DNA of 64,000 nt, from assembly GCA_002269645.1 (NCBI GenBank), contig NIVC01001713.1, positions 124,001 through 188,000 on the forward strand, given 5' to 3'. Position 1 is the first letter of the stretch, and every line of letters begins with the position of its first letter. Below are positions 12,773 through 59,792 of the stretch, in pieces. Position numbers and translations under genes: made by a program. The stretch comes from Macrostomum lignano. Lineage: Eukaryota. The notes beneath the pieces were generated by a model. That model made no database searches, had not been told where the DNA came from, and saw only the letters and a list, made by a program, of their open reading frames with translations.

Positions 12773-15418
12773 TGTGGTGGAGGCGGCGGCTGCTGATGCA
12801 GTGGAGTCTGCGGGTACAGCTGCGGCGGCTGCTGCTGCTGATGAAGATGCTGCTGCTGAGCCTGGAGATGGTGCTGTGGCAGCTGCTTAGCGTGAGCCTG
12901 TGGTATGTTAGGGTGCTGAGGCATGGGCGTCTTACTCGCCACCTGGGCTTGCATGCCGCGCTGCTGCTGCTGTTGCTGTTGATGATGAAAAGCCGCGCCT
13001 GCTGCTGACGGCGCTGCTGCTCCCCTGCTGTCGTTCAAGTGCGGCGGCGGCGGCCTGCTGAGGATGGATGGACTTCACGTGCGATCGGAGAGACGATTTG
13101 CTGGCGTAGCTTTTGCTGCAGTGCTTGCACATGAATTTGTGAGCTGGCTGAGCTGCCACCTGCTGCTGCGGCTGTTGCAGCTGCTGCTGCTGCTGCAAGT
13201 GCTGGAACTGCGGATGTTGCGACTGATGCAGCTGCTGATGATGCTGCGGGTGATGCTGCTGCTGCATCAGCTGCTGGTGGTGCTGGTGATGATGCGCAGC
13301 CGGCGGAGCGCCGCTAGCAGCTGCGGCGGCTGCGGCGGCCATGTGCGGCGCGGCGAAGAACTGCGGCGCGTACATCATCTGGGCGGCGGCGGCAGCGTGA
13401 TGCGGCTGCATAGCGGCTGGGAACCCAACTGCGGCCGCGGCGGCGGCGGCGGCGGCGGCAGCTGCCCCAGGCTGTCGGAAATGTTGATGAGCAGCGGCCG
13501 CCAGCTCGTGCGGCTGTAAGTGAGATTGAGACTGCTGCTGCGACTGCTGCTGTTGCGGCTGCTGATGGTGATGATGCTGTTGGTGATGGTGCTGCAGGTG
13601 CTGCTGCTGCTGCTGTACGGCCGCTGGACCGCCGGCTGCCATGCCGGGCACCTGCGGTTGCTGCGGCGGCGGCTGCGGCGGCATGGGCTTGCGCGGAGGC
13701 ACCCTGGGCGCGTGATATGCCTCGTATTGTTCCACGTCGATGCTCTCGGCGTTAGCCAGAATGTCGTCCAGGCCTGTCATAGCAGTGCCAAGCGATTTCC
13801 AATCCTTCGGGAGCGACGATTGCGGCGTCTTCTGCTGTTCTTCGGCCAATTCTGCCGGCTTCTCGGCCTGGGCCTGGTCGGGCTCGGCAGTGTCCGAGTC
13901 GCGCGGCTCGGCCTCGCCTAGCGACACGCCGCTCGTGTCCAACAAACTGACGCCGGTGTCGGCAGTCGGGACGGCGTTCGCCGAACTGGCACCTTCGCCA
14001 TCGTCGCCGCGAGCCTGCTCGATTGCCGAAGTGTCGACGGCGGTAGAATCCTCGGCTGCTAAAGATTCGCTTAAGTTAGGCGCAGCGGAGTCTTCAGTCT
14101 CTACTATTGGCTTTTTTGCGTCATTGCCATCTATGCCAGATTCAGTAGTTTCAGCTGCCGCCGTTTTTTCATCAGTGGCAGCAGTAGTTGATTCTAATGC
14201 GGAATCCGGAACAGCATCGGCAGCAGACGGCTCCGTATTGAGCTTTTCTCCATCATTCAGAGCGGGCGCATCGTCTTCTGTAGCAGTCTCGGGCATTAAG
14301 GTCTCGTCTTGAACAGTAGGCTGCTTTTCTGGCAATTTCTCTGACTGGAATTCCGGACCGCGCTCGATGGAAGGCTCAGTCTCCATAGTAGCAGGCTGAG
14401 CTGCTGCAGCTGGGGCAACCGTTGGCGGTGCTAAATCTTCTTTTTCCAACTCAGCAGACTGCTTAATTGATTCAATAGACTGTTCAACCGACTCAGCAGG
14501 TTGCTCTGTCGACTCAGTGGACTGCTCAATCGACTCAACAGACTGTTCGACTAAATCAGCATTAGCAGGCTGCTCAATTGACTCAGCTGACTGCTCAACT
14601 GACTCAGCTGACTGCTCGATTGACTCAGCTGACTGCTCAATGGACTCAGCTGGCATCTCAACCGACTCAGCTGACTGCTCAACCGACTCAGATGGCATCT
14701 CAACCGACTCAGCTGACTGCTCAACCGACTCAGATGGCATCTCAACCGACTCAGCTGACTGCTTGATCGACTCAGCTGACTGCTCAACCGACTTAGCTAA
14801 TTGCTCAATCGACTCAGCTGACTGCTCAACCGACTCAGTTGGCACCTCGACTGACTCAGCTGGCATCTCAACCGACTCAGCTGGCATCTCAACCGACTCA
14901 GCTGACTGCTCAACTGACGCAACTGGCATCTCGATTTTCGCGGCTGACTGCTCAACTGACTCAGCAGTAGGCTCAGCCGATTCAGTACTCTGCTCAACTG
15001 TGTTTGACTCAGCAGGCTGCTCAGGCGGCCCAGAAGAATCGAATTCCTCTCCTAATTCAGCACCAGACGCTTGCTGCTCCATTTGAAACACCTCCGATGC
15101 AACTTGAGGCTCTGGCCGATCAGGCATAGATGATTCAGCAATGTTATTTTGACCTCCGCCAAAGTCTGCCACTTCCTGAGCTCTATCAGCTTTGACAGGC
15201 TCCATCTGTGCTTCAGTATTAGGCAATTGTTCTTTCAGAATGCTTGTGTCTGTTGGAGCAGTCAGACTGGAGTCCAAAAGTTCTCTAGCAGCAGCAGGGG
15301 CTGCATTATCTCTGATGGGTGGCGCACTGTCACAGTTGGAATTTTGGTCATTAGAGATGGCATCAGCTGGTGGAGGCGTCGGTGACTGAGCATCAGCCAT
15401 GCAACGGCAGCCATGCAT
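9368..15418 (-). CDS. C2H2 zinc-finger protein with polyQ/polyA tracts and an N-terminal acidic heptad repeat; complement(join(9368..9759,10942..~15400/15418))
   Basis: Four C2H2-type fingers: FMCKHCSKSY..SHVKSIH; CPVRNCSQVF..RHIAEMH; CPWPGCGKMY..AHTCKH; CQLCDYRC..RHHRQC. Phase-1 GT-AG intron 9760-10941 joins ...SSDS to AAKPDPYRSF...NHRYPF*. Apparent frameshifts near 12772, 12996 and 13023; the last two are absent from the duplicate copy. Confidence 0.8.
9845..10920 (+). repeat. Intronic satellite: ~20-21-bp GTGTGGGATTTCGATTCTCA units, then ~31-bp GTGTGGGATCATGACTTAAGGTGTGTGATTT units
   Basis: Tandem units fill the last intron of the zinc-finger gene. Confidence 0.95.
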
Positions 15419-48039: not shown

Positions 48040-48977
48040 CGGCCCATCAGACTGGATTGCAAATTTCTCCAGAGATAGTGCAGTAGTACGCGGATATTTT
48101 AATATCTTTTTTTTTTAAATTTAGCAACAACTAGCAATCTATAGTGCCCCCCTTCGGGGCGGCCAATGAGCAAGGGACGAATCCTTTATGAAAATAATTC
48201 TTAATTCGTTTATTAATTTATTTATAAATAGAATAGAATTTAATAATTAATTCTATTTTTTATTCTGGGATTATGTATAAATCAAACATATGCTATTTAA
48301 CCATGCTTGCCATCTTTCAGAGCAATAGCGTGCTACTTCTGTAGCCGGGGGGGGGCTCCAGGTATTGCACGGCAAGCAGTACGCCCTGCAACGGCTGCAA
48401 AAGCAGCAACAGCAGAAAAAAATGTTACTCATTGGCAGAACAGTTGGCTATAATACCAAGAGGCGTCAGTGGCGCTTTTGCAGAAGGCTTCACCAACAAG
48501 ATGGTACCATTGCACAAATTCTGTTACGAACATTTCATTGGTGGCAATCTTACCACTTGTTGGCTTGCTTTAGTCTGCACAGCTGGTCATAGGCATTCAC
48601 TTGGGAGCATGTAAATTTCACTCATTACTAATGAGCATTCAAAAACAGTTACAACCCTCCTCTTTTTGCAACCGGGCTTGGGACCGGCTTTGGCAGAGTT
48701 AAAGCCATCACAAGAGACTATCTGGGGTTTGCAAAGGCAGCTTCAAACCCCCTCTGGCTGCATTTGCATGTACGAGGGCCATTCCAAAAGTTCATGCAAT
48801 CAGACATTTTTTATTACAACAAAAAGCTGCTAATTTGGGCTTCTATCACTGCACTACGAGACTCTCTGGCCGAACCCTTTAATTGGAACATTAATTGATT
48901 GAATTTTCCTATTGCTTGGAAAAGGACTCTAATTGAGCTTCTATCACCGCAGTATCAAGACTGTCTCTGACCGAACC

Positions 48978-49108
48978 CTAGAAATGCAGTAGAAATGCAG
49001 TTTCTTATGTAAACACAGTCCTACAAATAAAGATTCTTAGAAACGTTTCCTAGAAATGCAGTTTCTTATATAAACACAGTCCTACAAATAAATATTCTTA
49101 GAAACGTT
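48978..49108 (+). repeat. 61-bp AT-rich satellite, left part (~2 units), target of the pPolB element
   Basis: Unit TTCTTAGAAACGTTTCCTAGAAATGCAGTTTCTTATATAAACACAGTCCTACAAATAAAGA; continues at 58615. Confidence 0.9.
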
Positions 49109-50019
49109 ACTACTAAGGACCCATTTATGGCTTGATTTTGGAGGTGAGGTGGGTGTCAACCCTCCTCGCCTCTCATTGGCTGGCGCCCCGATCACTAGGT
49201 GATCGATACCCGTATCGATATCGGCGCTCGGCGCGCGCGCGCCGCAGGCGCGTGGCGCCAAGCGCCGTCCAGCCGCAGGCGACCCTCCCCAGCCACCGGC
49301 GACCCTCCCCAGCCGCAGGCGCACCTACCGATATGTATGCTCACCCTACCGACATGTACCCCGATATGTACACCCTCCCGAGCCGCAGGCGCACCCTCCC
49401 GAGCCGTAGGCGCCCATGCGGCAGACGCCCATGCCGCAGACGCCCATGCCGCAGACGCCCATGCCGCAGGCACCCCGAGTGTACACTCTACCGAGCCGCA
49501 GGCACCCCGAGTGTACACTCTACCGATATGTACACTCTACCACTCTCCCGATATGTAGTCAACGATATTAGGCTAGTGAAAACTACTTATAGTAGGTGAA
49601 ATTGAGTATATTTACATAAAAATGTAGATAAAACATATTGGTAGGTGAATAATGACGCATATTGCATATTAAAATGTACATATTGGAGCATATGAGCAGC
49701 AAAAACACACAATGTAGGTGTATGGGCAGAAATAGACAAAGCAGGTACTGTAGGCGCTACATAGGTGGAAATACACACAGCAGGTTTACAAAGTGAACTT
49801 TCGATACATATCGGATTAATGTATAAAGCAGGTTTACAAGGCATGCATAAGGTGTAGTTGTATAATACAGGCACGCATGTATAATCAGATTATAGGCAAA
49901 CGCCCAGGTGCAACAGACGCGTAAATAATGTCGCACCGACTAAAGAGTAAATATTGTCTAACCCGCAGGTGCATAAATATTAAACAAAAGCGGTTCGGGG
50001 AAATCCCAAAAGGGAGGTT
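49109..50019 (+). repeat. Left terminal inverted repeat (911 bp)
   Basis: Reverse complement of 57704-58614. I saw only two mismatches, both near the inner end. Confidence 0.95.
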
Positions 50020-50332
50020 TTAGCCGCCCGTTTTCGCCACCGCCGCCGCCGCCCTAACCCTCTTATAGGTACAATTGCGTTGAAAGTATTTCGAGTCATT
50101 AGGTTGTAATGACCCTCCATATTTTAGGTGGGTGGACTCGAGCCCGGGGCCAGCCCATTTCAGTTTTTTGGGCCGGCCCCTCTGCCAATTTCCTCCCTAG
50201 GAGCGAGCTATCAGAATTGGTCTTTTAACCCCCGTGTATACACACATAGAGGCCCCCAGCTAGCGCCCATTCTAACCTACCCAGTGTACAGTGTTGGGTT
50301 CCCCAAACCGCGTACAAAGAGAAATACCCTTA

Positions 50333-51347
50333 TCAGTCAATCTCCATACGCTCCCTCAGGGCTGTCTCGTACGCGGCCTCTTCCTCCACGCTCTCGAAGC
50401 AGTAGTCGGATGACTGGCAATGTGGAAATTATAACAGTCAATGCAGATAGAATATATGCAAGGTATATGATTAGATGAGTTGTGTATATAATGTAATATC
50501 TTACCAAATCTAAATCGTCCTCCAGCCGCCACAGACGTAAAGACGCTGTATAGCGCACCAACGAAAGGTGCTCCTCCCAGTTGGAGGGCCATGCGGCGGG
50601 CTCATCCCACGCGGTTGGCCGCGCTCCCGGACCGGCCAGGTACGCCTCAGAGTCGGGGGCATACGAATTGCGCCCCATCAACCAGTCCTGGTGCAGAGTC
50701 TCAGCCTCCAACACCTCCCGTAGGCCGGCACCCCTCGCAACCAAAGTATCAAGAACCCGATTAAAGGCTCTGACAAAGGTAGCTTGGGAGGGCAGCCCGC
50801 CAGGATGCCGAGACCTCAGCCAGTCAATGTCCCCGCGGAAAAATGAGGCCACAATGCGAGGAAAGCGCTCACGAACCACGGCGATCTCCTCAGACATATC
50901 CTCGTCCTCGTCGTCGAAGAGAAGGAGCGTAGCGGCTGATGATATTGAGGCCCGGTGGGAGGTAGTTGAAGCAGCAGCAGAGACGGGCGTAGTAGAGGCG
51001 GCAGCAGCAGAGACGGGCGCAGCAGAGGCAGGGCCGGTTGTGGTCAGCTCCTCAACAGAGACGTCAAAGAGGGCGGCTGAGGCGGTAGTCAAATCGGAGG
51101 CAGTAGCAGCAGGGGCACCGTTCACAACCCCGCCGATAGCCAGCAGCGGGAGGTCAAAAACTTCAGACTCGGTGTCGCTATCATAGGACATAGCCCAAGC
51201 TAGATATTGATCAGCCTCCCAATTATCAGTTCCGTTGTTTTCAGTGCCTAGGGGAACTATGTGTTCAGGGATATCCCCGTCGAGGCTGGTTAACTCTTCA
51301 GTCGGGCGATTATTATCCCAGAGGTTGGATAGAGCTCGGCGGGACAT
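50333..51347 (-). CDS. Orphan acidic protein, ~307 aa, one intron; complement(join(50333..50413,50505..51347))
   Basis: Long ORF. Donor TTG|GTAAGA at 50504 and acceptor TTGCCAG at 50414 replace a hydrophobic read-through tail with SSDYCFESVEEEAAYETALRERMEID*. TATATAA box at 51421-51427. Confidence 0.7.
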
Positions 51348-51420
51348 GCTAGAATCAACAGAGAGTAAAGTATTAGAGCTGAGATAGGGTTTGACTCTCT
51401 GGAGAGGGGGGAAACACTAA

Positions 51421-51427
51421 TTATATA
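51421..51427 (-). promoter_or_regulatory. TATA box for the orphan gene
   Basis: TATATAA about 75 bp upstream of the ATG at 51347. Confidence 0.45.
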
Positions 51428-51463
51428 GACGGATCGAGTGAGGCGGTGCGAACCAATAGGAAA

Positions 51464-51996
51464 CTAGCAGTCCCAACCCTCGTTAAACAGATTTTCCCAG
51501 GGTGGAGATTGGTAGGGTTTGAGACCCATGAGCTGAAGAACATCCACCTCAGTCCCGGCTACCGGAGGCGTGTCTGTCTTGACTCGCTTGGCTGGAGGGG
51601 GTGCCTCAGGTGCCGGCTTGAAGAGCTTGTCCAAACGGGCGGCAAACATCCGGCGCCACAGTTCAGGCGTGAATTCGATCGTGTAGCGCCAATTAAACTT
51701 TGGGTCCTGATTGAGCCAATTGCGCAGCAAACGGATCCTCCCTCGCGAAGCTTCAACTGCCTTGAAATTGCCCAACAGGACCCGCTTGTTCACGTGAAGG
51801 CGGGCAGCAGCCTCCAGGTCAGGGCGCGCGCTTCGAGCTTCTTCCACTCTGGCTCGGCCAAGTAGATTGCAGGGAAGCCGTCCTTCCACACTCCGGCCTC
51901 GTTGGTGTAGAGACGCCGAATTTCAATCAAGTTGTGTTCAGTTTCAAATGTGGGCTTCCGCGCCACAAAGTTTTCGTATAGAGAGATAGAAGACAT
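51464..51996 (-). CDS. Tandem PC4-like ssDNA-binding protein, ~177 aa (one apparent 1-bp deletion near 51830)
   Basis: Repeat 1: LIEIRRLYTNEAGVWKDGFPAIYLAEPEWKKLEA(A)RPDLEAAAR vs human PC4 [44 protein letters not shown]. Repeat 2: VLLGNFKAVEASRGRIRLLRNW...TIEFTPELWRRM. Restoring one base gives 534 nt. Confidence 0.65.
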
Positions 51997-52041
51997 GATT
52001 TAGCAGCAGCAGCAGAGAGCTCTCTGACAGCCGTGCAGCGC

Positions 52042-52164
52042 CTTATATACCCCCGGTGGAGGGTGGGGTGGGTGATGATTTTGGGGTGATTTTTGATGAT
52101 TTTGGTTGGTTTTTGGCGATTTATCCAATAACAGGCGAGCTGAGCAGATTTTTTAGTATATATA
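52042..52164. promoter_or_regulatory. Compact divergent Pol II promoter: TATATAAG (minus, 52042-52049) and TATATATA (plus, 52157-52164)
   Basis: Each box lies about 45-70 bp upstream of the PC4-like ATG (51996) or the pPolB ATG (52235). Confidence 0.55.
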
Positions 52165-52234
52165 CAGACCCCCAGAGCCAGGGTAGAGAGATAAATCCTT
52201 CTCTCTCCGCTCTCTCACGCTCTCTGTTTGCAAA

Positions 52235-55200
52235 ATGGCTAAACGCAGCGCCGCAGCAACTGCTTTCCTGGCTGACAAGAGGCAACGTCTTTATGGTAAG
52301 TTTTAATTAATTTCTGTCTAGACTGTAGTTGCTAGGGTGGGGGTAGGGGCTGAGCAGCAGCAGCAGCTGCAGGGTCTGTGGGACCGCAGAGTAAACAACA
52401 AAGACTGCTGCGACAGCTGCAGGGGTCTAGACTGGAGTTGCTAGGGTGGGGTGCTGCGGCAGGGTCTGTAACAGAGAGTTGCAGGGGAGGGCTAGACAAG
52501 TTTCAGCCGGGTGTGTGCTGATAAGAAATTGCTGCTAGGGGGGTGTTGTCCAGACAGGCTGCAGCTGGGGTGCAAATTGCTGCGACAGAGAGTTGCAGGG
52601 GTGAGTAAACAAAGACTGGGGTGGGGTGTTGTCTAGACAGGGAGGGGTGTGCTGATAAGAAATTGCTGCAAAAACAGACAGTTGCTAGGGTGCTGCGGCA
52701 GATAAGAAATTGCTGCAGAATCGTTGGGGCAGGCTAGACAAGTTACAGCCAGGTGGGGGCAGAGAGTTGCTGGGACTGTGTAGCGCGGGGACAGACTGAT
52801 AAGAAATTGGCAGGGGCGCTACCCAGACAGGCTGCAGCTAGGTGCAAATTGCTGCGACAGAGAGTTGCAGGGGTGAGTAAACAAAGACTGCTGCGACAGG
52901 CTGCAGCGGGGGTGCAGATAAGAAATTGCAGAGAGTTGCTGCGGGGACAGCAGAGTAAACTCTGTTAAGAAATTGCTGGGGCTAGGGCGGGGAAACACGC
53001 TGGGGCCAGGAAAATGACAGATTCTTCTGGTTTTTTATCTCCTTGTGTTTTTTCAGACGCGTTTGTCCCGCCAACACAGCCGGAATCTGTTACCGGACCG
53101 GGTGAGTTATCCAGCCCCCCATTTCCCACACAGACCCTAGCTGACTCACACTCCCCCATTCCCCCCATGCAGGTTTTACGGCCCGGCTGGATAATCAGCG
53201 TGACCTGCCCAAGTTTAGGGCAAAGGGTGTCGAGTATGTGGTGCATATTACCAACACCGAAGATTTGCGGGAGGTGTTTGCTGACATGCTCGAAGTTTTC
53301 AAGCAAGATTTGGCTGGTGATGACTTTATGGCCGCGAAATTCGAGAGCGACAATATGCTCAAAGCGGCCCACACTCCCCCGGTGCGTGCATCCCGCATGA
53401 CGGCTGAATTGTTGTTTAAGCACATCAACAAGATTGTACAGTCGGATGCCACTGTCCTGACGGGCAACTTTTCTATCCGGTTGCTAAAGGCCTGGGTGCC
53501 TCGAGGTGGATGTGCTCTCGAGAACAAGCATCTAGAAGAGCGACACGCCTTCTCCAAGCACTATGTCCGCATCACCAACTCGGACAAGAGATGCCTGCTG
53601 CGCGCTCTGGTCGTGGCCTGCGCCTACCTGCAATTCGTGGCCAAGTCCATCACCAAGCAGGTGTGGCACACAATCAAGGCCAATTCGCCCACGCAGACTA
53701 AGCTGGTGGCTGAGCTACAAATCGAAGCGGGTCTCTACTCGGTAAGTTGTGTACTGATAAGAATTTTTACACAGTATCATGGAATACTAATATTTTCTGA
53801 TAAGATTTTTACGATAAGGAATACTAAAAGAATTTTTACACAGTATCATGGAGTACTAAAAGATATATTTTCTGATAAGATTTTTACACAGTATCATGGA
53901 ATACTAAAATTTTCTGATAAGAAATTTTACGATAAGGAATACTAAAAGAAATATTTTACCCTCCACACAGACTCTTCAAACCGTCTCGCAGGCTGGTCCT
54001 TTCGGCGTGGATGCACTGCCCGAAGCGATCCGTGCCCTGAACCGGCTGCATCCGGGGCACGATTTTGGTGTACGCGTGTACCGCGCAGAGGAGGCCAACA
54101 GGTGCATCTTCAACCTGCCTGGCACCGAGATTCTGCACCTGCACCTGGTCGAGCAGCACTTTAATGTGGTTACCAAGCTGCCTGCGTTTTTCGGCTCCGT
54201 GCGCTACTGCCCCAAGTGCGAGATGGCCTACGACTGCGCCAACGCCAAGCACAAGTGCGCGATGCCTGCAGTACATGCAAGACTCCGGGCTCCAACTGTA
54301 AGGCAAACCGCGCATATGTAAGATGCCATGATTGCGGGCTAAATTGCTATAATGCTCAGTGCCTAGAAAATCACAAGCGCAAGAATAAGGCCGGCAGATC
54401 GCGCTGTGATTCGGTCCACGTTTGCGGCACGTGTGGCTATCTAGAAGAACTAAAAGTAGGCCAGCCCCCTGAGCATCAGTGTGGTTACGCCAAGTGCCCA
54501 GTCTGCAAGCAGTACGACGAAACTGCCACCCACGAGTGCTTTGTCACCCCGCCCAAAGCCAAAGAGTCTAGCGCCCCGTATGTTTACTATGATTTCGAGA
54601 CGTACGTGGACTCTGGCAAGCAGCACCGGGTACACTTGGTTACGGCTGCCACCTCCTGCGAGGCGTGTCCCAAACTCTTCCCCAGGCCCCGCTGCAGCGT
54701 GTGCGGGGGACTACACAGCTCAGCCAATTGCATTGCGGGACGCGATTTGGCACTCGATTTCACGAGCTGTGTCTCGCACAATGACTGTGCCTGTGGGATG
54801 CGAGAGTTTGTATCTGTCGGGCCGCACTCTATCGATGCCTTTTACTGCTGGCTGACTAGTGTGTTCAAGCAGGGGGCAATTGCTATTGCGCACAATGGCT
54901 CTGCGTATGACGCATTCCTCCTGCTCGGCGCCCTACTCAACGGACTGGCCAAGAAGAAGCCGCAAGTGATCTTCCAGAACAGCCGCCTAATGTATATGAA
55001 GTGCGACAAGATCACCTTCAAGGACAGCCTCAATTTCATCCCTATTGGTCTGGCGCAATTCCCAAAGGCGCTTGGTTTGGGCACCCAACTGACCAAAGGA
55101 GATTTCCCGCACGTGTTTAACCAGCCACAAAATTGGGGGTACGTGGGACCCTACTGCTCAATTGATATGTATGGAGGAAAGAAAAACAAGCAGCACGACT

Positions 55201-57346
55201 CCATCGCAGACTGGCTGGCCAAGCAGGAGGGACAGGTGTTTAATTTCAATAAGGAGTACCTGGACTACTGCCTGCAGGACACGTTAATTTTGCGGGAAGG
55301 CTGTCTGAAATATACCCGCCTGATTAAGGACATTTGCGGACTGGACGCATTTGTCAATCCAACACCATTGCGGGCTTGGCTATGGCTGTTTTCACCACCA
55401 AGTTTATGGAGCCCAACACTCTTGGGGTGATTTCCCGCCGGTCCGATGTACAGTCGCACAAGGCGCGGTGCTGGCTGGCACATTTAAATGCAACCGAGTT
55501 TGGCGGCCGGTTGCGGACAGCGGACTCGGGCGGCGAGGCTTTCGCCATGGGCCGTAAGGTCGACGGCTTCGACCCAGAGACCAGGACAGTGCTGCAGTTT
55601 CATGGCTGCTTCTTCCATGGCTGTCCCAAGTGCTTCCCCAACGGCGACGTGCTGCACCCGCTCAAGAACCAGCCAATGCGGGCGATTTATGAGGAGACTG
55701 AGCGCTTCACCCGGTTGCTCTCCACTGCATACAATGTGCGTGTTCTGTGGGAGCACGACTATCAGGACGAGGGAGCGCCAGTCCAGCAGCCTATTCGCCT
55801 GGAGGATGCCCTGTTTGGCGGCCGTACCGAGGCTTTTGTCCCGCATGCCGAGGCCACCGAGACTGTAGAGCTGCGCTATCGGGATGTGGTAAGTTTGTAC
55901 ACTTGTACACACAGTTGACATGCGTTTGAGTTTATCTTATCCTCTAATTCTCTATTATCCTTATCCCCTAGGTGTCGCTCTACCCGACTGTCAACAAGTT
56001 TGACAAGTACCCTGTCGGGCACCCGGTTCACCACCCCGAGCCTCATCTACTGGATGAGCAGCAGCTGGCCCGGTATTTTGGCATCGCCGAGGTGTCGATT
56101 CTGCCGCCAACCAATCTCCACATCCCGCTACTGCCCGCCAAGATTAACAAGAAGCTGGTTTTCGGCCTCTGCCGCGTCTGCATGGAGACCCAGTGCAGCA
56201 GCGAGTGTACACACACTGACGCTGAGAGAATGCTCCGCGGCACGTGGTCGACCCCAGAGCTCCACAAGGCCCTGCAGTTGGGTTACAAGCTGCAGTCAGT
56301 TCATGCCCTGGCCTATTGGACCGAGACTCGCACGGGCCTGTTTGCAGATTATGTAAACACCTTTTTGAAGCTCAAAGCCGAGTCTAGCGGTTCGCCGGGG
56401 ATGGCTGAGGACGCCAAGGCTGCCTACATGGCCAGCTTTTTCGAGCGCGAAGGCGTCCGGCTGGAAAAGGTGGAGGAGAATCCTGGCCTGCGCTTTGTTG
56501 CCAAGATTTTTCTAAACTCGTAAGTTTTTCTACTTGCAGTGGGGGGCCATGTTTTTCTACTTACATAAAATTTATTTTTCCCCTGCAGGCTCTGGGGCAA
56601 ATTCTGCCAGCGCGACGACCTGACCTCCACAGAGATTGTGGACAGCTACGAGGCGTGGCTGCAGCGCCTGACCGACCCCTCGATCAAGGTCAAGTCGTGC
56701 GAGCCAATTGGGGAGAGCTTCATGATGCTCGAGTACAAGCCCCGATTTGGCGGTGCTGGCGAGCGGGCGTTCAAGTACGCTAATGTGCCTATTGGCGTTT
56801 TCACCACCTCCCACGCCCGGCTGCGACTCTACGAGGCTCTGGAGGGCCTAGGAACCCGAGTCATTTACGCCGATACTGATTCGTGAGTAATTTTTTCAAC
56901 TGTCTCTGTCTCTCTTTCTCCCCTTAACACTTTATTCTCCTCCTCCTCCCAGGGTTGTATACCGCTGCTCACCGGGCGAGTACGAGCCTCCGGGCGGTTC
57001 GAGTTTGGGGCAGTGGACTGACGAGGTACCTGCTGGCTGCCGCATGGTACAGTTCACCACGGGAGGCCCCAAGCTCTACCGGTACGTGGTGGAGAAGCCT
57101 GACGGGTCGCTGTACTCGGTGCTCAAGTGCAAGGGCATCAGAGTCACCCCCGAGATTTCCGAGCGCGAGGACGAGCTGCAGGAAATTCTGCGTCACGGCG
57201 GGACTGTACGCCTGCCCCAGGCCCAGTTCAGGCGCGATAAGGCTAGCTGTACAATCCGGACCCTCGAGATGGACAAGACTTTCCAGCGCGTAATGACTAA
57301 GAGGGTGTATGGGGCTGCTAGCCGCCCGTATGGCTTTCGGGAGTGA
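52235..57346 (+). CDS. polB: Protein-primed family B DNA polymerase (Polinton type), ~1269 aa, 7 exons: 52235..52295, 53057..53101, 53173..53741, 53992(or 53971)..55888, 55972..56519, 56589..56882, 56953..57346
   Basis: ExoI YYDFET, ExoII HNGSAYD, ExoIII YCLQD, FGGRTE, motif A RDV|VSLYP, motif B KIFLNS|LWGKF, motif C YADTDS|V, KxY/KCKG. All six introns are GT-AG and phase-consistent. Two 1-bp deletions (near 54258 and 55355) restore a 3810-nt frame. Confidence 0.92.
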
Positions 57347-57703
57347 GTGAAAGATAAGGATCTGTCTTTGCACGCCTGGGATTCCCCTATGTGCCCACTT
57401 GGGATCCCTTGACTCGTGGGGATGAAAATGGTTTTACGCCCGCACTGTACTTAGGGGTCCTTACTCATTTGGCGCCTCCACTGTACATTGAGCGGGATCC
57501 CCTCAAGTGTTAAAACTCCCATTTGACACCTATTCCCTCGGGGCGGTTTGTGGCCCAGCGGTCCGCCTCTTGGAGTAGAACTCCTGACATGAACTTGCTG
57601 CGCTGGTTAGCGTACTGATAGCGCAATCGAAATACGTTGTCCATTTTTCTAGCCCACTTGTGGGTTTAATTGTGTTGAAAGTATATCGGGTCATTAGGCC
57701 GTG

Positions 57704-58614
57704 AACCTCCCTTTTGGGATTTCCCCGAACCGCTTTTGGTTAATATTTATGCACCTGCGGGTTAGACAATATTTACTCTTTAGTCGGTGTGACATTATTT
57801 ACGCGTCTGTTGCACCTGGGCGTTTGCCTATAATCTGATTATACATGCGTGCCTGTATTATACAACTACACCTTATGCATGCCTTGTAAACCTGCTTTAT
57901 ACATTAATCCGATATGTATCGAAAGTTCACTTTGTAAACCTGCTGTGTGTATTTCCACCTATGTAGCGCCTACAGTACCTGCTTTGTCTATTTCTGCCCA
58001 TACACCTACATTGTGTGTTTTTGCTGCTCATATGCTCCAATATGTACATTTTAATATGCAATATGCGTCATTATTCACCTACCAATATGTTTTATCTACA
58101 TTTTTATGTAAATATACTCAATTTCACCTACTATAAGTAGTTTTCACTAGCCTAATATCGTTGACTACATATCGGGAGAGTGGTAGAGTGTACATATCGG
58201 TAGAGTGTACACTCGGGGTGCCTGCGGCTCGGTAGAGTGTACACTCGGGGTGCCTGCGGCATGGGCGTCTGCGGCATGGGCGTCTGCGGCATGGGCGTCT
58301 GCCGCATGGGCGCCTACGGCTCGGGAGGGTGCGCCTGCGGCTCGGGAGGGTGTACATATCGGGGTACATGTCGGTAGGGTGAGCATACATATCGGTAGGT
58401 GCGCCTGCGGCTGGGGAGGGTCGCCGGTGGCTGGGGAGGGTCGCCTGCGGCTGGACGGCGCTTGGCGCCACGCGCCTGCGGCGCGCGCGCGCCGAGCGCC
58501 GATATCGATACGGGTATCGATCACCTAGTGATCGGGGCGCCAGCCAATGAGAGGCGAGGAGGGTTGACACCCACCTCACCTCCAAAATCAAGCCATAAAT
58601 GGGTCCTTAGTAGT
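57704..58614 (-). repeat. Right terminal inverted repeat (911 bp)
   Basis: Reverse complement of 49109-50019. Confidence 0.95.
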
Positions 58615-59410
58615 AACGTTTCCTAGAAAAACAGTTTCTTATATAAACATAGTCCTACAAATAAAGATTCTTAGAAACTTTTCCTAGAAATGCAGTTTCT
58701 TATATAAACACAGTCCTACAAATAAAAAATTCTTAGAAACGTTTCCTAGAAAAGCAGTTTCTTATATAAACATAGTCCTACAAATAAAGATTCTTAGAAA
58801 CTTTTCCTAGAAATGCAGTTTCTTATATAAACACAGTCCTACAAATAAAAAATTCTTAGAAACGTTTCCTAGAAAAGCAGTTTCTTATATAAACATAGTC
58901 CTACAAATAAAGATTCTTAGAAACTTTTCCTAGAAATGCAGTTTCTTATATAAACACAGTCCTACAAAAAAAGATTCTTAGAAACGTTTCCTAGAAATGC
59001 AGTTTCTTATATAAACACAGTCCTACAAATAAAGATTCTTAGAAACGTTTCCTAGAAATGCAGTTTCTTATATAAACATAGTCCTACAAATAAAAAATTC
59101 TTAGAAACGTTTCCTAGAAAAGCAGTTTCTTATATAAACATAGTCCTACAAATAAAGATTCTTAGAAACTTTTCCTAGAAATGCAGTTTCTTATATAAAC
59201 ACAGTCCTACAAATAAAGATTCTTAGAAACGTTTCCTAGAAATGCAGTTTCTTATATATAAACACAGTCCTACAAATAAAGATTTTTACAAACGTTTCTC
59301 AGATATGCAGTTTCTTACAAACACATTCCTACAAACAAAGATTCTTAGAAAGTTTCTTAGAAATACAGTTCATCTCTACAAATAAACATTTTTTGAAACG
59401 TTTCTTAGAC
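58615..59410 (+). repeat. 61-bp AT-rich satellite, right part (~13 units)
   Basis: Direct; resumes at the duplicated AACGTT. Confidence 0.95.
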
Positions 59411-59451
59411 TTAGATATACAGATACAGTCAAATTAAAATGTTCATCTCAC

Positions 59452-59792
59452 CTGTTAACCGACACTCCTCGACGGCGAATTTGGTCGGCCTCCACTCGAG
59501 CTCTTCGCTGAGCCTCAGTTTCCGTGGCCCTACGCTCACTTGTGCGCCGCCGAGCTGCAGTTAGGCGCTCTTCTCGCTGAGCGTCGGTCTCCACGGCACT
59601 CCGCTTAGCCTTTTGCTGTCGGAGTCCAGCCAGGCGCTCTTCGCGCTGAGCGTCGGTCTCCCTGGCCCTTCGTTCAGTCTCCTGCTGCCGGTGTGCAGCC
59701 AGGCGCTCCTCTTGTTGAACAGCGGTCTCTTGCTGACGTTTCTTTTTGGCATCTCTGCTCTTTTTCAAAGCGCTGGTGCCACGTCGAGCCAT
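59452..59792 (-). CDS. First exon of an STPR-repeat protein (four 23-aa repeats; FMBP-1-like or Helitron RepHel N-terminus-like)
   Basis: ETAVQQEERLAAHRQQETERRAR / ETDAQREERLAGLRQQKAKRSAV / ETDAQREERLTAARRRTSERRAT / ETEAQRRARVEAD, with an exact 23-aa period. Donor AACAG|GTGAGA at 59451. No downstream exon found. Confidence 0.6.

Follow-up and report, generated by a model that had tools for sequence, protein, structure and literature searches.

The window, a 64,000-nucleotide stretch of the Macrostomum lignano genome (contig NIVC01001713.1, positions 124,001 to 188,000, forward strand), contains an element of 9506 bp (49109-58614) that carries a predicted tandem PC4-like gene together with a gene for a protein-primed polymerase B (pPolB). 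The inverted repeats of the element are ~910 bp long and its ends read 5'-ACTACT. Its features, in window coordinates, are as follows.

49103..49108, no strand: 6-bp target-site duplication, left copy
49109..50019, plus strand: left terminal inverted repeat, beginning 5'-ACTACT
50337..51347, minus strand: third gene, a 336-aa frame, acidic and Ala-rich, with one intron at ~50414-50504
51464..51996, minus strand: predicted tandem PC4-like (MOSUB-like) gene; repeat 1 at ~aa 1-68, repeat 2 at ~aa 70-127, followed by a Pro-rich tail
near 51830, minus strand: frameshift of the tandem-PC4 gene in the window copy
51997..52234, no strand: divergent intergenic region, a putative promoter region with TATA-like boxes at ~52043-52049 (minus strand) and ~52157-52164 (plus strand)
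52235..57346, plus strand: pPolB with six introns, assigned from PF03175, RNA-like joints, splice sites and an exon check
57704..58614, minus strand: right terminal inverted repeat, essentially identical to the left one
58615..58620, no strand: 6-bp target-site duplication, right copy

The three genes occupy the space between the repeats. Thirteen full-length copies (L021-L033) carry the identical set of three genes, and none of them gave a match to capsid, ATPase or protease genes or to the integrase of the resident Mavericks; the window ORFs that were scanned gave no rve match. Integrase fragments near L038, L039 and L075 were considered as part of the element and rejected (26-38% identity). 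The third gene matched no Pfam family and has homologues in the same host only. It is missing from one subfamily, a shorter one (L056, L098 and L099; 8.8 kb in L056) whose 165-aa PC4 protein has a different tail.

The element has inserted many times independently. All 16 further copies of its family, family A, have a 6-bp duplication of their own (12 scripted, 4 from printed ends), and when all 134 candidates for one pPolB exon were scored, 45 matched it over nearly its full length, at 95-100% identity. The ends of family A elements are near-identical within a copy and 83-97% alike between copies. The ~25 bases after ACTACT vary among copies and are usually the same at both ends; in L032 and L156 they differ between left and right. 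The window element itself sits within a tandem array of ~57-bp AT-rich repeats (48960-49108 and 58615-58900). Just beyond it lies an ORF with STPR repeats (59448-59792, minus strand; PF21107 above cut-off). Two related ORFs at 1362-2522 and 12932-15418 (minus strand) show hints of a coiled coil and of C2H2 zinc fingers, with weak Pfam matches only.

In the window copy, the tandem-PC4 gene consists of two overlapping minus-strand frames; the first starts with the ATG at 51996 and is 68 aa long, and the second, downstream of it, ends at 51464. An earlier note on this DNA had read these as one gene once a single base is restored. The other copies bear this out. When the Macrostomum lignano genome (764 Mb, 5269 contigs) was searched for copies, 40 of 73 candidates were scored, at 89-100% identity, and the best 20 of the 40 were fetched. 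Fourteen of these 20 contain a native single frame of 177 aa; in three, including the window copy, the frame stops at 68 aa, and in another three at 145 aa. The check at the frameshift that the note had proposed, made here with run contigs, points the same way, as the contigs of 8/8 public runs (4 RNA-like and 4 DNA-like) have the open form at the break. Run contigs lose rare variants, and therefore an assembly error is only likely here; the break near 51830 may be either such an error or a rare broken copy. Natively open copies were used throughout for the protein analyses.

The pPolB gene lies head to head with the tandem-PC4 gene. PF03175 scored above cut-off in two exon pieces of the window copy. 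The divergent layout is confirmed by exon 1, whose start lies 239 bp away from the ATG of the PC4 gene. The two ATGs are about 240 bp apart, and 240-246 bp apart in the 8 copies measured. The pairing claimed in the earlier note was thus upheld after the short first exon had been located. The same note had overlooked that pPolB has introns, that integrase and capsid genes are missing and that adintovirus maps already carry the MOSUB label.

The pPolB RNA is spliced. All six introns are of the GT-AG type, and joints occur in RNA-like contigs for introns 1-6 in 2, 4, 3, 3, 4 and 4 of 4 runs (four studies), with a 2-letter offset in two of the three joints of intron 3. No splicing of introns 1-3 is seen in four DNA-like runs. 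Runs were called RNA-like by their GT-AG joints (X1, X3, X5 and X11, as against none over introns 1-3 in X15, X16, X19 and X20), and none carries an RNA label on record. Mere decay of pPolB was considered and rejected, as six of its breaks are introns. In Polintons, the terminal-protein domain lies at the N-terminus of pPolB; exons 1-3 of the present gene gave no informative Pfam match to such a domain. Window positions 55334-55885, within pPolB, may resemble a VSR nuclease in a motif, with no match in Pfam or the PDB. A VSR nuclease insert is described for pPolB2 in a passage of 10.1101/2023.08.22.554363.

The comparison with PF02229 that the earlier note had suggested gave a divided answer. 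Pfam scans of the window pieces and of the 177-aa protein returned no PF02229/PC4 match, whereas the cut-off was passed by 4 of 6 same-genome relatives in one set and by 2 of 3 in another, and a 9-sequence family profile matched human PC4 over repeat 1 (E 2.5e-7 to 1.9e-6). Similarity to the PF02229 core is found, then, through the family profile and the relatives. Judged by sequence, repeat 1 is PC4, and is closest to PC4/Sub1 proper. It keeps the residues equivalent to PC4 F77, R86 and W89 (the last as Tyr), with numbering derived from the matched chain range. A single-sequence PDB search gave weak matches only (E 0.19-1).

AlphaFold2, also named in the note as a check, predicted a single-chain, two-repeat PC4 fold for residues 1-127 (mean pLDDT 90.5), each repeat having four strands plus a helix; the structure models were built on 9-11 sequences. 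Among 48,161 chains, the best structural match of the whole model was to Pur-alpha repeats I-II (Z 9.2, rmsd 3.9, 116 aligned, residues 1-127), the sole chain with Z above 8. It was followed by two uncharacterised cyanobacterial proteins, MRP1/2, human PC4, T5 PC4, MoSub1 and Whirly. Human PC4 matched repeat 1 of the model with Z 6.6 and rmsd 1.7. In a Foldseek search of the PDB, PC4 chains ranked first (E 0.005-0.016); the E-values of the Foldseek PDB searches, that with repeat 2 included, are > 0.001.

Repeat 2 showed no sequence-profile similarity to repeat 1 or to PC4 (probability 1.4%). When it was folded alone (pLDDT 76), PC4 chains ranked 1st-6th of 335 matches, weakly (E 0.39-1.6, TMq 0.49-0.57). 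It is the more basic half of the protein, with 14 K/R vs 5 D/E and 9 aromatics; repeat 1 of the window's family is slightly acidic. Of the two PC4-like repeats claimed at the outset, the first therefore stands by sequence and structure, and the second, which has no profile match, is predicted from its modelled structure to be a degenerate PC4-like repeat. With this degenerate second repeat, the tandem PC4 reading is a good prediction. The predicted layout is that of type I PC4-like proteins, with paired four-strand-plus-helix repeats in a single chain, and not that of type II, with a single repeat per chain and a homodimer, since the model places both repeats in one chain.

We lean, with slightly better than even confidence, towards the tandem-PC4 protein being an ssDNA-binding factor (SSB) for the strand-displacement replication of an integrase-less, capsid-less 9.5-kb element of the Polinton/Maverick type. 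The protein might instead bind nucleic acids in another step, such as the annealing or recombination of terminal repeats, the protection of ends before integration, or RNA binding in the manner of Pur-alpha and MRP1/2. The closest whole-domain folds are indeed type I binders of RNA or DNA, a passage of PMC7549692 states that asymmetric type I domains may bind one strand only, and the two copies with unlike left and right end types suggest exchange between elements. Yet repeat 1 is by sequence nearest to PC4/Sub1 proper, and such activities would overlap with an SSB role rather than exclude it. We consider this alternative quite unlikely.

The genomic relatives of the element show how its two facing genes are distributed. 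Two families of small elements, A and B, are free of morphogenesis, integrase and TBP genes, and both keep the PC4 gene facing pPolB. Family B differs in sequence from family A (PC4 ~45% and pPolB 60-70% identical); its genes lie head to head as well, with a spacing of 455 bp in the copy measured. One family B copy carries a dUTPase gene (L077:3307-3834, PF00692). In family C (10 loci fetched) pPolB is present and 4 loci show terminal repeats and 6-bp duplications; tblastn and a maximum-sensitivity profile search of the 10 loci found no PC4 gene. As this family exists without it, the PC4 gene would seem to be dispensable in cis. The family C pPolB of L100-L119 has fewer introns (867-aa open frames), and a long stop-ridden stretch lies upstream of it.

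Three families of full Mavericks also reside here, with integrase, capsids, protease, ATPase, a TBP-like protein and a two-repeat PC4 gene. For these Mavericks there are 116 integrase matches. In all three families sampled, the two-repeat PC4 gene lies by the terminal repeat, distant from pPolB, and this pPolB is a different one (endonuclease VII type) that the pPolB of the small elements does not match. The TBP-like protein occurs in L052:4519-5082, L121:7752-8390, L050, L064, L066 and L067, with PF00352 above cut-off in the two that were scanned. Where Maverick ends were seen, they read 5'-AGTAGT; the small elements end in 5'-ACTACT or 5'-ACTACG. The earlier note had interpreted the gene as the SSB that completes a replication kit of terminal protein, polymerase and SSB. 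In its strict form that reading is weighed against by the far-placed PC4 gene and the TBP-like gene of the three Maverick families and by family C with no PC4 gene.

These same observations bear on the possibility that the protein is a PC4-like transcription cofactor, which would help to open the TATA promoters of the element itself, or to activate them, with TBP as its partner instead of the polymerase. Human PC4 carries an activation region in its N-terminal extension, and the 177-aa protein starts straight at the PC4 core with no extension of this kind. The small elements have no TBP gene, and still families A and B keep PC4 beside pPolB. On the other side, tandem-PC4 and TBP-like proteins occur together in all three Maverick families and their genes are neighbours in one of them, and PC4 is presented as a cofactor of both transcription and replication in a passage of PMC7549692. 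On balance, we regard a transcriptional role as unlikely, though less so than a role in annealing, end protection or RNA binding.

Far from being separate and non-conserved ORFs, as the earlier note had allowed for, the two parts of the PC4 gene form one frame with low dN/dS in both repeats. In one subfamily pair dN/dS was 0.15 for repeat 1 and 0.11 for repeat 2, and in two Maverick pairs repeat 2 gave 0.10-0.12. Over the whole domain, the ratio was 0.13-0.14 for the two same-family pairs that have diverged most and lay between 0.27 and 0.68 for five other small-element pairs; some close pairs gave 0.29-0.68. Of the Maverick pairs, one gave 0.08, and saturation affected four. The low values support purifying selection on both repeats.

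Sequence searches with the tandem-PC4 protein returned same-host proteins and two JGI clusters only (4/350 and 6/1037 candidates), and scans of viral and metagenome contigs found nothing. Database proteins that are nearly identical to it bear the label of Macrostomum lignano, a flatworm. The Atlas offers a lead only (first match 0.86), with clusters of 174-184 aa in which 21-28% of members carry PF02229. The range of the gene outside the Macrostomum lignano genome rests on the Atlas and on a viral structural match in BFVD. In a 14-row tree with long branches and support for 2 of 11 branches, the two small-element families group together; the tree is silent on origin.

Alternatively, a deleted Maverick may have left the gene behind as a decayed passenger, in which case helper proteins would do all the copying of a 9.5-kb element that is itself no more than a passive deletion derivative. 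The window copy is broken both in PC4 and in pPolB exon 4, an exon that only 5 of 21 assembled copies have open (the other exons checked are open in 83-96%), and family C persists with no PC4 gene. Against this, the PC4 frame is open in most of the best copies (14/20), dN/dS is low in the more diverged pairs, and spliced RNA-like contigs come from 4 studies. Moreover, the pPolB of the element is unlike that of the resident Mavericks, and among the Mavericks seen here there is none from which the element could derive by deletion. This explanation is already largely refuted, and we hold it to be highly improbable.

The genome has 224 occurrences of a 30-nt motif from the family A repeat (0 for the reversed control), and a number of the loci that share it are palindromes. 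Among 20 motif loci, picked mostly for lack of PC4 and pPolB matches, 15 are 99.1-99.9% palindromes of ~7-9.5 kb. A second set of 20 loci gave 15 matches to the palindrome arm and no intact integrase or capsid gene. The palindromes (L138-L146, L148-L152 and L157; also L158-L177) share only the outermost few hundred repeat bases with the window element and contain no recognisable gene; ten frames of one of them gave no Pfam match. All 17 motif loci checked have 6-bp duplications (13 scripted, 4 by eye). Read artefacts were considered as a source of the palindromes and rejected, because the flanks differ from one palindrome to the next and every one of them is bounded by a 6-bp duplication of its own.

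No second segment bearing a capsid or integrase gene was found in the 40 end-sharing loci examined, among the matches listed of the 224. One of the 40 has three Maverick-like fragments (32-98 aa) and one has a Gypsy insertion. L147 is a short same-ended element bearing a tandem Gypsy retrotransposon; its 818-aa frame was considered as a helper segment and rejected, as it reads as tandem Gypsy gag-pol. In L079 the left end of family A forms a palindrome (99.9% over 3.8 kb) in which PC4 and the 336-aa gene are each present twice. At L135-L137, a palindromic satellite contains a full Maverick that inserted with a 6-bp duplication of its own.

If the tandem-PC4 protein is an SSB, replication could proceed as follows. 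The polymerase would initiate at the ACTACT ends and displace one strand, which the tandem-PC4 protein would coat or melt, as the DNA-binding proteins of phi29 and adenovirus do. Annealing of the inverted repeats of the displaced strand would keep both ends identical and give rise to snap-back palindromes; near-identical ends within a copy and 99% palindromes are by-products expected of strand-displacement copying. New copies would then be inserted by a trans-acting integrase, for which the full Mavericks of the same genome are the likeliest source. The 6-bp duplication suggests these resident Mavericks, and the reversed end motif (ACTACT vs AGTAGT) weakens this suggestion.

Tentatively, and with somewhat less than even confidence, we envisage a three-tier parasitic system. 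Full Mavericks would provide the integrase, a spliced, nucleus-adapted 9.5-kb replicon would contribute its own pPolB and a single-chain PC4-fold SSB, and gene-less palindromes would use the origin of this replicon. The MOSUB-like tandem PC4 would then be the dedicated SSB of animal Polintons.

So far, gene lists have been the main basis for inferences on how Polintons replicate. The tandem-PC4 protein is a small candidate to work with, and Macrostomum lignano is a laboratory animal in which the element gives spliced RNA and has recently inserted. The element shows that a Polinton-type replicon can retain copying genes only, acquire host-type introns and still spread, and it seems to support palindromic satellites of its own. 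Trans-acting integration and strand-displacement copying of Polintons thereby become observable in vivo.

The best viral structural match to the whole domain in BFVD is MOSUB of a lancelet (Branchiostoma) adintovirus (A0A5H3CIS2; E 1.6e-4, TMq 0.73, 15% identity). Supplementary Fig S2 of PMC8502044 shows MOSUB as a map label adjoining the terminal repeat, and a term search of the main text of that paper did not find it. Its position beside the terminal repeat resembles that in the full Mavericks of Macrostomum lignano. However, in the adintovirus MOSUB is a label only, whereas the window homologue faces pPolB in an element with neither integrase nor capsid genes. The gene class is thus known by its label; the tandem structural reading is apparently new, and the reduced replicon with its own satellites is unusual. 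In the freely accessible papers searched, we found no paper linking a PC4-fold SSB to Polinton replication, and within the same scope none on such palindromic satellites, the tandem reading or a three-tier system. Repbase has entries for non-autonomous Polintons, and therefore an earlier description of these elements is possible.

Human PC4, fungal Sub1 and phage T5 PC4 (type II, PF02229) resemble repeat 1 in sequence and structure. They are single-repeat homodimers, whereas the tandem-PC4 protein is predicted to pair its two repeats asymmetrically within one chain, the second of them being degenerate. Pur-alpha I-II, Whirly and MRP1/2 (type I) have the two-repeat topology in one chain, as in our model. 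These are cellular or organellar proteins with no PC4-like sequence and only 8-11% identity to tandem-PC4, and hence the tandem form probably arose here separately. PMC7549692 treats PC4-like domains in a single chain as an established class; it also describes PC4-like folds as ssDNA binders that are able to unwind DNA, and a T5 homologue as active in replication.

With Polintons/Mavericks (adintoviruses), the window element has in common pPolB, ~900-bp terminal inverted repeats, the 6-bp duplication and trinucleotide-repeat ends. It is smaller, at 9.5 kb vs 13-25 kb for Polintons (10.1101/2023.08.22.554363), and unlike them it lacks integrase, capsids, ATPase and protease. Some Polintons are devoid of capsid, protease and ATPase genes as well, and the passage of PMC4028283 that describes them does not report loss of integrase. 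Intact vertebrate Mavericks, as described in PMC8097293, are intronless and have AGT-repeat 5' ends. In contrast, the window element has six spliceosomal introns, and its ends show the usual 5'-AGTAGT motif (PMC8097293) in reverse complement.

Parallels also come from phi29, Bam35 and adenovirus, which combine a protein-primed polymerase and inverted ends with a dedicated SSB. In phi29 and adenovirus, protein-primed replication employs a dedicated ssDNA-binding protein that has been proven biochemically, and Bam35 has an SSB; none of these SSBs is known to be a PC4-fold protein. The window element has a candidate SSB of predicted tandem PC4 fold directly adjacent to its polymerase gene.
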